DNA from: a virus
Virus record (IMG/VR): IMGVR_UViG_3300045988_183245
DNA length: 64,000 bases
Direction: 5' to 3' (one strand)
In this document: one piece after another, positions 6,433 to 62,012 of the stretch
Position numbering within the stretch: the stretch's first letter is position 1
Layout: each line of letters opens with the position of its first letter
The notes under the pieces: generated by a model
Seen by the model: only the letters and a program-made list of their open reading frames with translations
What the model was told of the DNA's origin: nothing
Database searches by the model: none
Position numbers and translations under genes: made by a program

Positions 6433-7011
6433 TGTTTTTCTCCTCCCACAATTCTTTCTAACATAATTATATCATATTTTACAGATGGACGGGCCAAAAT
6501 CGCAACTTTGTTCATGAATACTTAACCTTTATGCACGAGATTTATTGTTGCCTTAATATATAAAACTAGAGCCCCGTCATCTTGGATGGGGCTCTTGAGT
6601 TGTAGCTGGAGGTGTATCTCATTTTGTGCCAGGGGTATTGTATGGTAGTTTTCGAAAATGAGTGCAAAAAAACAAACACCAGAAGTCAAACTCAAAAATA
6701 TCTTAGTCTTGGCAAGTTTACCCTTGCGCCGCTGTGCGAACCTCATAAAATAGAAATTGTACAAGAGAAACGGCAAGTGACGTTCATCGCGATTGTAGTT
6801 GGTCGCCACGAATCGATGCCGTGTCTGCTTGCGCATAATTACCTCTTTTCGAAGCCCACAGGTCATTCTCTCACCTGTGGGTTTTGTTTATTGCGGAATC
6901 GTGCGAATTGCAGACAATTAAAGACAGAGCGATTGTGAGATGGGGCGATACCGATGCAGTAGGGATGAGAATCTTAGCAGCTAAAAAACTGAATATGGAG
7001 AAACAAAAATT

Positions 7012-8655
7012 ATGGTATATGTGATTGCGATTGTGGCAGCCCTGATTATTCTCTTTGGATTTCTCTGCTACAAAAAAGCTCCGCCCACGGAGGCTATCGT
7101 TGTGACCGGCTTTGGTCTGTCTAAGCCTAAAGTGGTTTGCGGAAAGGGTACATTTGTTCTGCCCGTTCTTCAACGGGCTGACCGACTGAATATGCGCCTT
7201 CTGAAAATTGACGTCAAAACTCCTGAAACAGGTGTTAAGACGAAGAACGGCGTAAGTCTTTGGATTGACTCTGTTGTCACGATTCAAGTCTACAGCGAAA
7301 ACTCTACCGTTCTGGATGAAGAAGTGAAGGCATCCGGTCTGAAAGACGCCAAGGCGTACATCATGTCCCGCCAGCAGGCAGCCATCTCGAACTTTCTCGG
7401 CATGAACGAGCAGGGCATCAATGAGAAAGTTAATGACGTTCTGCAGGGCAATTTGCGTGAGATTGTTTCTGACATGACCGTTGACCAAATTCTGACGAAC
7501 CGCAAGCAGATGGCTGTGAGCGTTATCGAGAATGCTCGCCCCGACCTTGCTAAGATGGGACTTGAGGTCGTGACTTTTAACGTCCAGGATATCAGGGATG
7601 CGGTGGATGTTCAGGGCCACAACCACGGCGTCATCGAGGCTATCGGCATTGAACAGGAAGAGCTTGTGAAAAAACAGGCTGAAATTGCCCGTGCTCAGGC
7701 TGCCCGTGATGTAGCCTGCGCGAAGGCCGATGCTGAGATGGCTGCAAATGCCAAGGAAGTTGAAGCGCAGACTGCGATTGCAAAACGCAACAATGAATTG
7801 CAGCTCGCCAAGGCAAAGCTGAAAGCTGAAGCTGATAAAGCTGCGGCTGACGCAGATGCTGCCGGTCAGATTCAGATGAATCTCCGCGCCAAAGAAATCA
7901 AAGAAGCGGAAGCGGATGCTGAAATCGCCAAGCAGAAGAAAATGGTAGACCTTGCCGCACAGGAAGCCGAGGTCCAGCAACGCAAACTGGATGCGGAAGT
8001 CCGCAAACAGGCAGATGCTGACCTGTACCGCCGCCAGAAAGAGGCAGAAGCCAAGAAATATGAGGCGGAACGTGCAGCTGAAGCACAGAAGTTCTCTAAG
8101 CAGCAGGAAGCAGAAGGCATTGAGCTTGTCGGTAAGGCAGAAGCTGAAGCGATTCGTCAGAAAGGCTTGGCTGAAGCGGAGGCCATGAAACAGAAAGCAG
8201 AGGCATATAAGCAGTATAACGATGCGGCTGTGGCTGAAATGCTCATCAAGGTTCTTCCTGACATTGCCAAGAGCGTGGCTCAGCCTTTGTCCAGCATTGA
8301 TAAGGTTTCTATCATTGGCGGTGACGCCTCCGGCGTATCCGGCGTTTCCGGGAACGTTCCTATCCTGATGGCTCAAACCATGCAGACGGTGAAAGAAGCG
8401 ACCGGCATTGACATGGGCGAAATTGTCCGTGCCAACAGCATCCAGGCAAAGACCGACCGCAACATCAACATTATGACTCAATGTGAACAGCCTGAGAATA
8501 ACAAAGAGAAAGGAGGTGCCAAGGCAATGGAACGCGTAGAAGGCGGCTATCTGATTCATGAGAAGAGTCTCAACGGTGAGAAAGTCACTCATTTTCGACC
8601 GGATGTGACCGAAGAAGAGAAGGCTATCATGAAAGACAAAAAGGCCAAAGATTAA
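7012..8655 (+). CDS. flotillin / SPFH (band-7) family protein
   Basis: N-terminal TM segment and SPFH-like region, then a long Ala/Glu/Lys-rich coiled-coil (AEAEA... repeats) typical of flotillin-like FloA/YqiK proteins. The antisense 614-aa ORF is rejected. Confidence 0.7.
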   Translation: MVYVIAIVAALIILFGFLCYKKAPPTEAIVVTGFGLSKPKVVCGKGTFVLPVLQRADRLNMRLLKIDVKTPETGVKTKNGVSLWIDSVVTIQVYSENSTVLDEEVKASGLKDAKAYIMSRQQAAISNFLGMNEQGINEKVNDVLQGNLREIVSDMTVDQILTNRKQMAVSVIENARPDLAKMGLEVVTFNVQDIRDAVDVQGHNHGVIEAIGIEQEELVKKQAEIARAQAARDVACAKADAEMAANAKEVEAQTAIAKRNNELQLAKAKLKAEADKAAADADAAGQIQMNLRAKEIKEAEADAEIAKQKKMVDLAAQEAEVQQRKLDAEVRKQADADLYRRQKEAEAKKYEAERAAEAQKFSKQQEAEGIELVGKAEAEAIRQKGLAEAEAMKQKAEAYKQYNDAAVAEMLIKVLPDIAKSVAQPLSSIDKVSIIGGDASGVSGVSGNVPILMAQTMQTVKEATGIDMGEIVRANSIQAKTDRNINIMTQCEQPENNKEKGGAKAMERVEGGYLIHEKSLNGEKVTHFRPDVTEEEKAIMKDKKAKD

Positions 8656-8866
8656 AGACAACGAATAAAAAGAGGGTGACTCGAAAGAGCCATCCTTTTT
8701 TCTGTTGTGACGCAAACGAAAAGTTCATGGTAGCCATCCAATTAGGGTGACTGTCTTTTTTGCATGTTAAGGCTTTGTTGCTGAATCGTGCGAATCGAAG
8801 ATAATTAGAAGCAAAAGATACTTCGTATCAAGCCCTCTTGATAGCAAATAGAGTAAAACCGGAGAG

Positions 8867-9268
8867 GTGAAGTTAATGCTCGGCGTGAGTTTGATTATCA
8901 TAGCAGCGGCTATAGTCTACATGGTCGAAACCTATATCAGCACCTATTACACTATCGAATACATGCATGGAACATCGCTGTTCCTTGTTCTCCTTGCAGA
9001 ATACGGCACGCCGGTTTTATTCCTGCTGCTCTGCGCCTACATTGCATATCGCAATTTTCTCAAAAAGCAGAAAGCTGCGGCTTCTGCTGCATCTGAACGG
9101 CCTACAAGCAAAGAAGAGCTGTATACCAACAAAATTCAAACGGCATTGACACCTCCCACGATTGAAATCGTGGGATTCCTGGGCGGCGCGGCAAGGTTCA
9201 TCGCCAAACCGTGTCTGAAACAGCGAGTTATGCGGTTTCCCATCATACACTACGGGTGTAGCGCATGA
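8867..9268 (+). CDS. small membrane protein; the 3' end is probably altered by the IS insertion
   Basis: Two to three hydrophobic helices. The reading frame runs into the IS200/605 end hairpin at 9155-9174, so the codons for TPPTIEIVGF are supplied by the IS end. Confidence 0.4.
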   Translation: MKLMLGVSLIIIAAAIVYMVETYISTYYTIEYMHGTSLFLVLLAEYGTPVLFLLLCAYIAYRNFLKKQKAAASAASERPTSKEELYTNKIQTALTPPTIEIVGFLGGAARFIAKPCLKQRVMRFPIIHYGCSA

Positions 9269-9404
9269 CGAGCATCCAGCCAAAATGGTTGACCAACATA
9301 CTTTTCTGCGTTCCCAGCTTTTTAAGTGCATCCTCCTGTGGAGTTTCACCTCTTGCGAGGCAGCTCTTTAATGAGGGAGTGTCGAGCCCCCAGAAAGTTA
9401 TTGT

Positions 9405-60430: not shown

Positions 60431-60600
60431 TCCCGCATAAATCCAATTTCCTCACTCCCGCTATGCCGCCCGCAACAGCGGTGAAAGCTCATAGATACTT
60501 GGTCGCACGGACGGAACCGTGCTGTAAAAATCCATTGAGTGAGAATTATTGGAATCCTGCGGGATTTTAAGCCCCTCCTTCAGGTGGAGGTTGTTGACAT

Positions 60601-61068
60601 ATGAATAAAACCCTTGAAATTAACTCGAATAAAGCCGTTCTTCTCAGCATCAAGAAGCAATGGCTTGAAAAAATTCTGAGCGGAGAAAAGACTATTGAGG
60701 TCCGAAAAACTATGCCGTGGGAAATTAGCTATCCTTTTGTAGTATTTTGCTACGAAACCAAAGCTAACGGTGGTGCTGGAAAAGTGACTGCCGCATTTGT
60801 TTGCCGTGACATCAATACACTCGATTGCCTGCGTGAGCTTCCGGCATATGCTATTGGTACGGAAGTGACCGCAAAGACCGCTCAATTCGTGAAGGACAGC
60901 TGCCTTACCGCAAATGAGCTGATTGCATACGGCAATAAGTCCGGCACTCTTTATTGCTGGAACGTTTCTGATGTCCAATCTATGGATATGTCGCTGCGAG
61001 AGCTCGGCGTTAAGCGAGCACCACAGTCCTGGATGTATCTGCGGATTCCTGATAACAAGACGTTCTGA
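60601..61068 (+). CDS. ASCH-domain-like protein (155 aa)
   Basis: VLLSIKKQWLEKILSGEKTIEVRK resembles the ASCH/PUA-like N-terminal motif. Confidence 0.4.
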   Translation: MNKTLEINSNKAVLLSIKKQWLEKILSGEKTIEVRKTMPWEISYPFVVFCYETKANGGAGKVTAAFVCRDINTLDCLRELPAYAIGTEVTAKTAQFVKDSCLTANELIAYGNKSGTLYCWNVSDVQSMDMSLRELGVKRAPQSWMYLRIPDNKTF

Positions 61069-61220
61069 ACGATGTCTGTTTGGGCTGGCTACGTGTACAA
61101 GCCAAACAAAATATCAACTACACGATAAAAACACACTCGAATGAATGATTCATCGTGCGAACAACGCAGACTCTCGATTCTTGAGGGCCTGCTATTTTTT
61201 TATTTCAGGAGGAAACATCA

Positions 61221-61760
61221 ATGATTCTTTATCATATCATGGCAGACACCGGATGCCTGCCGGACGATGTCGTTCCGCAGATACCAACGAATCGGATGAA
61301 AGGGGAGAACCAGGAAATCCCAAGAATTTGTCTTGGGCATACCCTTGACGACTGCCTGACCAGCATCGGCATTGCGCATTTTGTCTCAAAATTCCTGCTC
61401 GCTGAGCTGCGTCAGAACAAAAAATACTCCAAGGACATGCCGTTACCGTTCATTGTCCGAATGTACAACATCAAGGACGAAGACCCGAATCTCTTGACCG
61501 AGGAAGAAACACAGAAATATGTGGCGGATTCTGTCGTGACCAGTGAATGCTGGCTCACAAGATACGAGAAACCCGTCAAAATCCAGAAACTTTGGCTTGT
61601 GGGTGGTGAAGTTGTTCTTTGGCCCTATATCGTTGACGGCGTCGTGTACGATTACCCAATCGTCCGTAACTCAATTTGGGCAGACAGCAAAACCTTGCCG
61701 GACCCGGAATTTCAGAATCAAATCATGGATATCACTCAGAAATGGCTTAACGAAGCCTGA
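61221..61760 (+). CDS. hypothetical protein (179 aa)
   Basis: RBS caggagg; a terminator-family hairpin lies upstream. Confidence 0.45.
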   Translation: MILYHIMADTGCLPDDVVPQIPTNRMKGENQEIPRICLGHTLDDCLTSIGIAHFVSKFLLAELRQNKKYSKDMPLPFIVRMYNIKDEDPNLLTEEETQKYVADSVVTSECWLTRYEKPVKIQKLWLVGGEVVLWPYIVDGVVYDYPIVRNSIWADSKTLPDPEFQNQIMDITQKWLNEA

Positions 61761-62012
61761 AAAAGAAGCACATCAAAAGCTCTTGCACATCCTTGCGAAT
61801 TCCATAGTATTAAAGTTGTACGACAGATAACATCTACTTTGCACACCGCGTGCTCGTACAATTCATAATTCTGTTCTCATTCAAGGCAGACTCATCTTCA
61901 TGATGGGCCTGCCTTTTTTTGTTTACAGAAAAAGGAGGAATTCAAAACAAACCACAAATCTCAAATCACAATCTTCCGCTACAAGGAAAAGACACAAAAA
62001 AGGAGTCACAAA

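Follow-up and report, generated by a model that had tools for sequence, protein, structure and literature searches.

In Q-dependent processive antitermination, a Q cassette comprises a promoter, a Q binding element, a sigma-dependent pause element and a terminator, and the lambda Q protein is monomeric when bound to its site, which is asymmetric (PMC9388147). In PalpB, the element bound by AlpA is GGGACG, at −25 to −20, i.e., between the −35 and −10 hexamers; AlpA depends on a −10-like sequence, CACGAT, that runs from −1 to +5, and subsequently bypasses a terminator located downstream (PMC9371919). Another Q-type example is BrrG, from the Bartonella gene transfer agent (bioRxiv 10.1101/2024.11.20.624540). 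Here we describe a class of promoters with a short conserved box in the spacer, found in 64,000 nucleotides of DNA (IMG/VR record IMGVR_UViG_3300045988_183245; this whole stretch is called the window hereafter). The window is part of a ~250-kb mobile element of the human gut, which is Firmicutes-type, uncultured and very common, and whose contigs are listed as viral in IMG/VR.

The window contains 15 sites with one fixed layout, TTGCnn-N4-(G/T)TGCGAA(T/C)-N4-TAnAAT, namely the 13 copies reported in an initial annotation of this DNA, a further site at 6734 and a weak one at 29317 (Table 1). Alignment on core and register, together with a position weight matrix (PWM), confirmed that the 13 copies are real members of one motif family, all intergenic and on the + strand, and their coordinates had been placed within 1–11 nt of the true positions. 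Fourteen sites align without gaps on the core, while 56332 carries an additional base ahead of the −10; the spacer measures 17 bp there and 16 bp at the other 14 of the 15 sites. The distance from box to −10, given earlier as 4–6 bp, is exactly 4 bp (5 bp at 56332), and if the −10 is numbered −12 to −7, the 8-bp box covers about −24 to −17, within the spacer. A canonical −35 had been described as absent; however, every copy has a TTG(C)nn hexamer 16 bp (17 bp at 56332) from the −10, one of which reads CTGTCA. The 19-bp motif, as originally written, has seven + strand matches at ≤2 mismatches, compared with zero expected from shuffled sequences, and thus holds for seven of the 13 copies, whereas the other six share the 8-bp core (G/T)TGCGAA(T/C) and the −10 in the same register. 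A PWM trained on 13 sites, including 6734, gives 29–41 bits for the training sites and a maximum of about 10–16 bits for simulated sequence; 29317 is a weak match (15.8 bits), and a scan of the − strand of the window returned no site.

All 15 sites are intergenic and on the + strand, although intergenic DNA makes up only 21.6% of the window, an arrangement with a chance probability of about 1e-10. Of the 33 gaps that measure ≥60 nt and stand ahead of a + strand gene, 14 contain a site, and all sites lie upstream of, and co-oriented with, genes, at 26–340 nt from a ribosome-binding site (RBS) and open reading frame (ORF). A terminator is found within 200 nt upstream of the −35 at 73% of unique sites (107/147). 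The earlier idea that the motif is embedded in promoters therefore stands, since a complete sigma-A-type −35/−10 pair accompanies it in fixed register, in intergenic DNA and ahead of ORFs. The motif is very probably the core of an element-specific, sigma-A-type promoter class that heads most + strand operons.

The box itself was evaluated in two samples. In 95 unique sites from the window and its relatives, for which only unselected columns were counted, C occurs at position 4 of the −35 in 68, A occurs four bases 5′ of the box in 76, and a pyrimidine lies directly 5′ of the box in 93; the other spacer columns are near-random. The second, unbiased sample consists of 50 unique promoters (31 non-redundant) found solely via a covariance model of the downstream leader RNA (see below). 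All 50 show the same architecture, at an invariant distance of 7 nt ahead of the leader RNA. In the 31 non-redundant promoters, the box contains 10.6 bits of information, compared with 6.3 bits for the −35 and 7.2 bits for the −10, which indicates that the box is under selection of its own and supports the earlier remark that the conservation goes beyond the needs of sigma-A. Most of the eight box positions carry 1.0–2.0 bits each, with 0.6 bits at the two ends, and the flanking N4 columns carry 0.03–0.7 bits each. The −35 begins with TTG or TCG in 31/31, and the −10, with the consensus TAnAAT, has A at position 2 and T at position 6 in 31/31. The box is asymmetric and lacks a dyad partner, because the columns of the would-be left half-site are degenerate; for the same reason, an operator of the form TTGCAC-N4-GTGCAA was rejected. 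Outside promoters, exact box 8-mers occur at chance level only, with no enrichment. The box is, in all likelihood, a selected recognition element in the spacer that belongs to neither the −35 nor the −10, and the alternative raised in the initial annotation, an operator fused to a −10 element, is at odds with its position inside a complete −35/−10 promoter.

The initial annotation also left room for a host promoter class spread over the host chromosome. A genome-wide motif scan, which covered IMG/VR, 185,579 species-representative genomes and the GenBank phages, showed instead that the motif is confined to the element. The pattern GTGCGAATTGCNNAYAAT was found in >120 IMG/VR stretches, on contigs of 27–252 kb, most of them with the full architecture; most of the retrieved relatives are close (92–99% identity). 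European Nucleotide Archive (ENA) contigs with the gene at the right end of the window measure 242–269 kb, and the protein of this gene is indexed in 2,816 assembly blocks. Chromosomes were scanned with a strict pattern, TTG-N7-GTGCGAATTGC-NN-AYAAT, which covers only about half of the known sites, and 22 stretches were found among the 185,579 genomes. Three of these lie on a 224-kb contig of a ‘Clostridiales bacterium’ metagenome-assembled genome (DYBQ01000001.1), which is evidently the element itself, and the others are single matches in cyanobacteria and a few other unrelated taxa. Many Nostocales and Oscillatoriales have one conserved site per genome (e.g., TTGGGTGGTGGTGCGAATTGCAGATAAT; loci L121–L142), and in L142 its distance to a sigma-factor gene is about 0.5 kb. 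These sites probably represent a conserved but unrelated locus. Among GenBank phages, blastn of the promoter gave chance matches only and megablast with window positions 12000–32000 gave no match, and a literature search on the box 8-mer returned unrelated primer sequences only. Since strict-pattern copies are not spread over the chromosomes of the 185,579 genomes, the promoter class is element-specific and not a host promoter class.

The element carries a second class of promoters that lack the box and match the near-consensus TTGACN-17-TATAAT, in front of transfer RNA (tRNA) genes and of genes for small helix-turn-helix (HTH) regulators (Table 1). The presence of these promoters implies that host polymerase can be used directly and that the box therefore marks a separate, regulated class.

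What the box promoters have downstream is less uniform. An intrinsic terminator lies between promoter and start codon at 8 of the 15 box promoters in the window, and, among relatives, a terminator follows within 160 nt at 62 of 147 unique sites (about 40%). The cas8c and cas7 genes lie behind two terminators (19209–19235 and 19475–19499) and have no promoter of their own; similarly, the terminator at 41790–41809 precedes an AAA gene with no promoter in between. A −10-like hexamer (TACGAT, AACGAT or TAAGAT) is present at a fixed offset, 9–14 nt after the −10, in 22 of 61 non-redundant sites, and it co-occurs with a leader terminator (15/22 sites with the hexamer vs. 7/39 without; Fisher p = 2e-4). 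The hexamer starts 18 bp after the end of the box, corresponds to about +2 to +7 of the predicted transcript, and lies in a motif, TAMGATARATA, that is common to two otherwise different leader types.

Many of the leaders form one RNA family of ~100 nt (alignment A1, covariance model R1), which has 73 matches in related loci and no matching family in Rfam. The 5′ sequence of the family is G(T/A)ACGATAGATAMCAT, and a single-stranded AATTCACAATT is conserved. The P1 stem is weakly supported and only 72% paired. In the terminator, covariation is strong (helix pairing of 97.6%; compensatory changes in 8 of 12 pairs), and the hairpin, GGCGGACUU...GCCCGCC, has a conserved A.C mismatch. Promoters with a leader mostly read GTGCGAAC, and promoters that run straight into a gene mostly read GTGCGAATTGC, i.e., the 19-mer of the initial annotation.

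These parts (a promoter, a spacer box, a −10-like repeat and a terminator) match the parts list of a Q cassette, suggesting that the box promoters may work by Q/AlpA-like antitermination loading, a reading to which we assign a probability of roughly 35%, with all of its steps deduced from sequence anatomy. Host sigma-A RNA polymerase would initiate at the box promoters, while an element-encoded DNA-binding protein would read the box as a monomer and, in the manner of lambda Q and Pseudomonas AlpA, target the polymerase directly after initiation. At the −10-like hexamer at the transcript start, (T/A)ACGAT or TAAGAT, sigma would bind again and the polymerase would pause. The box-bound factor could load at this pause, and the modified polymerase would then pass the leader terminator as well as the promoter-less terminators inside long co-directional operons. 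Without the factor, the box promoters would yield only RNAs of roughly 60–130 nt.

Several likenesses lead us to place a Q/AlpA-like loading site first. As in the Q-type cassettes (lambda PR′-qut-tR′, AlpA/PalpB-tB and BrrG), the promoter is of sigma-70 type. The AlpA element (−25 to −20) and the box (about −24 to −17) are both short, asymmetric and located in the spacer, and the gap from element to hexamer is 18 bp in PalpB and here. At those sites here that have a hexamer at the predicted transcript start, it may read (T/A)ACGAT, which has ACGAT in common with CACGAT of PalpB and AACGAT of lambda. An intrinsic leader terminator upstream of the regulated genes is likewise shared, although here by a subset of the sites only. 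The leader terminators and the conserved initially transcribed region, neither of which figures in the initial annotation, point to antitermination, and the arrangement may be said to resemble the Q family in anatomy, without being filed as a member of it. There are differences as well. Q-type systems use one site, whereas here there are dozens per element, only about 40% of which have a pause-like hexamer and a terminator. In contrast to Q-type systems, moreover, the host is Firmicutes-like, the leaders are a conserved RNA family, and the system is known from sequence alone.

A number of observations weigh against antitermination loading. First, about 60% of the box promoters have no hexamer or leader terminator and keep the box nonetheless, for which a general activator or repressor is the simpler explanation. 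Second, each known Q-type system governs one promoter or a few, and here there are dozens. Third, the link between hexamer and terminator may stem from duplication of whole promoter-plus-leader modules. Fourth, a predicted RNA stem (P1, 72% paired) includes the conserved 5′ sequence, which could thus act at the RNA level. Finally, no Q, AlpA or NusG-like family was found in protein scans (Pfam, PHROGs) that covered about 75 window ORFs and 144 further ORF clusters from relatives, with 25 of 43 families listed for the latter, the proteins scanned representing about one quarter of the ~250-kb genome. Within the same 75 ORFs and 25 of 43 families, the Q-family Pfams PF06530, PF03589 and PF06323 and the AlpA/Q21 fold gave no match.

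It is rather doubtful, though conceivable, that the element has a genome-wide Q-like regulon, with dozens of spacer loading boxes, many of them with a pause hexamer, leader RNA and terminator, in which the box would be read by new, non-Q antiterminators, possibly the tandem-HTH proteins described below. If true, no earlier case of processive antitermination loaded at promoter DNA would be known to us from Gram-positive mobile elements, nor any that serves a whole genome rather than a single late promoter. Other forms of processive antitermination offer a further comparison, namely RfaH/ops and put of HK022, and, on a Gram-positive mobile element, conAn of pLS20 (PMC8191782). These systems and the present one share long, terminator-interrupted operons (of a mobile element in the case of conAn) and a conserved element, close to the transcript's 5′ end, that could give read-through. 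However, conAn, ops and put act as RNA or as transcribed non-template DNA, have no promoter-spacer box, and use one site per operon system.

Which protein might read the box is a separate question. The window encodes several proteins with 1–6 tandem Mor/HTH_7/HTH_23-like units, and the paralogues at 39795–41788, 14914–15357 and 55134–55505 are built solely of 2, 3, 3 or 6 tandem HTH units (Table 1). Their counterparts in relatives vary in repeat number (247–318 aa). The family is essentially clade-restricted, with 99 of 102 matches at ≥62% local identity, and all homologues at ≥62% identity come with the same box; tblastn of the 6xHTH protein against GenBank phages gave no match. The units match Mor (Pfam PF08765) and PHROG ‘late transcriptional activator’ families. 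An AlphaFold2 model of the 2xHTH protein is helical, with a predicted local distance difference test (pLDDT) score of 76. A Foldseek search of this model against the PDB found no significant match; the best non-significant ones were bipartite or tandem HTH DNA binders (Sulfolobus Cbp1, Tc3, Mu C and Mor). Such modelled folds would fit a monomeric reading of an asymmetric site, but this proves nothing. As the initial annotation had supposed, the tandem-HTH proteins are plausible candidates for the cognate factors of the box, judged from their sequences. Among them, the product of 55134–55505 would be a logical early regulator, because its promoter is box-less, whereas the HTH gene at 31743–32345 (−) is not a core regulator, since it is missing from a syntenic relative (L147). 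The sole distant homologue (about 25% identity; loci L149–L151) belongs to an unrelated phage without the motif. At L149 (5884–7638), genes for a sigma-70 region-4 protein (227 aa), a Mor homologue (102 aa), a Mor-N-terminal-plus-tandem-HTH protein (250 aa) and a holin stand in a row, which suggests that tandem-HTH proteins are part of late-gene control modules elsewhere.

Two other functions for the box have to be weighed, both of which we consider unlikely. In one, the box is the operator of a global repressor: an element-encoded monomer bound to it would block RNA polymerase, so that most + strand operons would be silent or throttled in the carried state. Steric repression classically acts from the spacer, the box is multi-copy as well as asymmetric, and a −35 and −10 of this quality would allow some basal activity. 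In addition, HTH genes on the opposite strand (31743–32345 and 55134–55505) have box-less consensus promoters, one of which stands back-to-back with a box promoter in a geometry typical of an immunity region. However, the register is nucleotide-invariant in every copy but 56332, whereas the positions of operators usually vary, and the regulon would take in defence, anti-defence and membrane genes that a resident element should express. Furthermore, 31743–32345 is absent from L147 and thus not core, and the leader terminators and the conserved initially transcribed motif are left unexplained.

Comparable multi-site systems are known. The C1 operators of P1 are dispersed, asymmetric and read by a monomer, and in RK2 the KorA operators are promoter-embedded and the KorA/KorB operators are palindromes. 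Both are large extrachromosomal elements with one short site in many promoters, as here. However, P1 operators occur at varied positions and those of RK2 are palindromic, whereas the box has a fixed register and linked leader terminators, and no C1- or KorA-like gene was identified. The stoperators of mycobacteriophage L5, which are bound by gp71, are about 30 asymmetric intergenic sites of 13 bp in one orientation to transcription. These are free-standing and block elongation; here, in contrast, each copy is built into a −35/−10 promoter at the same nucleotide, and stoperators were rejected on this ground.

The other function, which we regard as improbable to the same degree, is positive control of initiation, in which the box would be contacted by a factor encoded by the element (an activator or a protein that appropriates sigma) or by a dedicated sigma that is sigma-A-like and has an additional module for reading DNA. 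The box promoters would then form a delayed class that follows the box-less one, and the leader terminators would belong to a separate layer, controlled by an RNA-binding or NusG-like antiterminator. The box class is indeed off-consensus (TTGC rather than TTGACA, a 16-bp spacer, and T or G at the first −10 position), whereas the box-less class is near-perfect, and the box is kept in roughly 60% of promoters without leader terminators. The match of the tandem-HTH units to Mor and ‘late transcriptional activator’ families, the 2xHTH gene under a box-less promoter, and the clustering, in a distant phage, of a tandem-HTH gene with those of a sigma-70 region-4 protein and a Mor homologue are also in its favor. 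Known activators, however, bind at or upstream of the −35, and here the box is in the spacer: Mor and C bind at about −33 to −55, the MotA box is at −30, and CII flanks the −35. MerR-type activators do bind the spacer, but need a dyad and a 19–20 bp spacer, unlike the asymmetric box and 16-bp spacer seen here, and MerR-type activation was therefore rejected. The −35 TTG is retained, in contrast to MotA- or Mor-dependent promoters. No sigma family was found within the protein-scan scope given above. Six-frame regular-expression searches of related DNA (about 1 Mb, of which about 365 kb is non-redundant) found only a cyanobacterial host sigma for sigma region 2.2 and nothing for the RNA polymerase beta-prime motif NADFDGD, both being weak tests.

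Two phage systems offer a comparison. In T4, middle promoters are a temporal class with a box recognized by a phage protein; this MotA box, which has its centre at −30 (11–13 bp from the −10), takes the place of the −35. A phage-specific class with a good −10 and an extra conserved multi-copy box is common to T4 MotA/AsiA and the present element. However, the −35 TTG is kept here, the box lies about 10 bp further downstream, and no MotA/AsiA homologues were found; a MotA-type middle promoter was rejected given the conserved −35 TTG and a box that ends 4 bp from the −10. In Mu, Mor and C bind as dimers to a dyad that overlaps and lies upstream of the −35, at promoters lacking a −35. The Mor-type HTH is common to the candidate regulators here, but, unlike Mor and C, these have 2–6 tandem HTH units and lack the Mor N-terminal dimerisation region.

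Other known promoter and operator classes were compared with the motif and rejected. An extracytoplasmic function (ECF) sigma factor, one of the candidates in the initial annotation, does not fit, because the hexamers (TTGCnn and TAnAAT) are both sigma-A-like, with no AAC in the −35 and no CGT in the −10. In a comparison of consensus sequences by eye, the Spo0A box (TGNCGAA), the Firmicutes LexA box (GAAC-N4-GTTC), sigma-54 (−24/−12), sigma-H/E/K and the extended −10 (TGn) fail on spacing or conserved positions. It is very improbable that the box has no separate function and is a relic of ancestral promoter-cassette duplication or a borrowed host-factor or host-promoter feature: some promoter pairs are similar beyond the functional elements (family D20) and most relatives are close (92–99% identity), but the N4 flanks and −35 positions 5–6 have drifted to near-random in the same paralogues while the box is conserved, the pattern forms a class on no bacterial chromosome among the 185,579 representative genomes, and the box 8-mer is not enriched outside promoters.

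The gene content of the element was also surveyed. Among the genes of the window are those for a PLD nuclease, an SPFH protein and a UvrD-like helicase; elsewhere in relatives lie genes for a topoisomerase, an NAD-dependent ligase, primase-like proteins, helicases, methyltransferases, ANT/Bro antirepressor domains, Fic and a secreted protein of >2,900 aa. No capsid, portal or terminase genes were seen among the annotated genes of the window and of the relatives' regions. ARAGORN predicts 17 tRNAs at 47640–55146, one of which (49069–49144) has an abnormal two-base anticodon and no Rfam confirmation. An HDV-like (hepatitis delta virus-like) ribozyme at 47555–47635 (Rfam HDV-F-prausnitzii, 50 bits) ends 5 nt before tRNA-Thr, and repeat copies of it occur near 47799–47826 and 49383–49410 in the tRNA region. 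This order of ribozyme and tRNA matches the published ‘theta ribozyme’-tRNA arrangement of gut phages (PMC10879173).

The type I-C genes cas8c (Csd1) and cas7 occupy 19516–21959; cas3, cas1, cas2 and a CRISPR array were not seen in the window. TnpB-type genes and one IS200 TnpA lie at 22431–23540, 35024–36763, 44035–44913, 51869–53200, 9405–11151 (−) and 11156–11557 (−). Hairpin repeats of the form CCCACGAnTnnAAnTCGTGGG (families D7, D11 and D13), mostly at the edges of TnpB-like genes, are probably transposon ends or guide-RNA scaffolds. At 59374–59613, there is a sub-threshold but strong match to HEARO, the IscB omega-RNA (70.7 bits, E = 1.5e-13), the sole strong Rfam match below threshold in this region, and at the corresponding place relatives have an intact IscB (RRXRR + HNH). 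The relatives' equivalent of 57298–58374 is a gene of 358 aa with a precomputed AcrVA2-like (PF26125) match, and some relatives have an IscB gene in its place, suggesting that this is a variable anti-defence or mobile hotspot. Two adjacent lipoprotein-like paralogues, 1034–2113 and 2258–3280, have signal peptides and RBSs that are about 84% identical in DNA.

Table 1. Promoters, leaders, candidate regulators and repeats of the window (lower case, N4 blocks or their equivalent; families of the paralogue repeats, D6, D8 and D15)
Feature	Position (strand)	Sequence or score	Leader terminator	Context
Box promoter, site 6734	6724..6751 (+)	TTGCGC-cgct-GTGCGAAC-ctca-TAAAAT	6855-6881	Absent from the initial annotation; would start a ~125-nt RNA ending at the terminator
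Box promoter	6891..6918 (+)	TTGCGG-aatc-GTGCGAAT-tgca-GACAAT		5′ of SPFH/flotillin gene 7012-8655
Box promoter	8778..8805 (+)	TTGCTG-aatc-GTGCGAAT-cgaa-GATAAT		5′ of ORF 8876-9268
Box promoter	12215..12242 (+)	TTGCAC-agcc-GTGCAAAT-tgca-TACAAT		5′ of PLD-nuclease gene 12586-14751
Box promoter	14803..14830 (+)	TTGCCC-attt-GTGCGAAT-tgca-GACAAT		5′ of 2xHTH (Mor-like) gene ending 15357
Box promoter	16014..16041 (+)	TTGCGA-aact-GTGCGAAT-tgca-GACAAT		5′ of operon 16081-19089
Box promoter, site 19158	19148..19175 (+)	TTGTCA-atct-GTGCGAAT-tgcg-TACAAT	19209-19235	Then ORF 19263-19460, terminator 19475-19499, cas8c and cas7
Box promoter, site 22260	22250..22277 (+)	TTGCAC-atct-GTGCGAAT-caga-TATAAT	22300-22336	TAAGAT in predicted transcript start; then TnpB 22431-23540
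Box promoter (weak), site 29317	29307..29334 (+)	TTGCCA-aaat-ATACGAAC-gccg-TACAAT	29387-29421	Then leader RNA and metallo-beta-lactamase-fold gene 29446-30606
Box promoter, site 32485	32475..32502 (+)	TTGCGT-gctt-GTGCGAAC-cgac-TACAAT	32575-32610	Back-to-back with − strand consensus sigma-A promoter 32372-32400
Box promoter, site 39665	39655..39682 (+)	TTGTGC-atct-GTGCGAAT-tgca-TATAAT	39747-39774	5′ of three tandem-HTH genes; near-identical copies in dozens of relatives
Box promoter	43728..43755 (+)	CTGTCA-aagc-GTGCGAAT-tgcg-TACCAT		5′ of TnpB-like ORFs 43792-44913
Box promoter, site 56332	56322..56350 (+)	TTGTGA-gaaa-TTGCGAAT-cgcgg-TATAAT		Sole 17-bp spacer; 5′ of ORF 56383-57054
Box promoter, site 58945	58935..58962 (+)	TTGCAC-aaat-GTGCGAAC-cgcc-TAAAAT	59035-59062	Then leader RNA
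Box promoter, site 61793	61783..61810 (+)	TTGCAC-atcc-TTGCGAAT-tcca-TAGTAT	61883-61915	Then leader RNA and tail-lysozyme-domain gene 62013-62840
Leader RNA	29342..29425 (+)	51 bits	29387-29421	
Leader RNA	32510..32612 (+)	83 bits	32575-32610	5′ GTACGATAGATAACAT, P1 stem, single-stranded ATTCACAATTT, terminator hairpin and U run
Leader RNA	58970..59066 (+)	59 bits	59035-59062	
Leader RNA	61818..61918 (+)	79 bits	61883-61915	
Box-less sigma-A promoter	47365-47393 (+)	TTGACC-17-TATAAT		5′ of HDV-like ribozyme and tRNA-Thr
Box-less promoter	51136-51164 (+)			
Box-less promoter	54074-54101 (+)			
Box-less promoter	55941-55969 (+)			Extended −10
Box-less promoter	32400-32372 (−)			Upstream of small HTH protein gene
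Box-less promoter	6505-6476 (−)			Upstream of small HTH protein gene
Box-less promoter	55589-55561 (−)	TGGACA-17-TATGAT		5′ of 2xHTH gene 55134-55505
2xHTH protein	14914..15357 (+)			Mor/HTH_28-like units; start codon uncertain; candidate box-binding factor
Three adjacent tandem-HTH genes	39795..41788 (+)			3, 3 and 6 units of about 50 aa; candidate factors
2xHTH protein	55134..55505 (−)			Under box-less promoter; candidate early regulator
Hairpin repeats	3454-3490, 34857-34893, 43627-43663, 53302-53338			
Hairpin repeats	9146-9184, 11672-11710, 55790-55828			
Hairpin repeats	37007-37043, 44989-45025			
Paralogue repeats	1007-1097 / 2231-2321			Lipoprotein-like paralogues
Paralogue repeats	1286-1433 / 2444-2591			Lipoprotein-like paralogues

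The box promoters form a real class, specific to the element and marked by a selected spacer box, and their tie to conserved leaders and terminators makes antitermination the best-supported, though unproven, reading of what the sites may do. If the box is the loading or recognition site of an element-encoded factor, it defines the regulatory logic of a very common gut element. The 28-bp sequence rule finds the transcription units of this element in metagenomes, and the promoters and leaders would offer orthogonal, factor-dependent parts for Clostridia. Even if an activator or a repressor reads the box, the box would be a clean case of an asymmetric regulatory element placed in the spacer, of which no counterpart has been described in cultured phages. 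The class thus provides a concrete way to test Q-type, DNA-loaded antitermination outside Proteobacteria and on a genome-wide scale.

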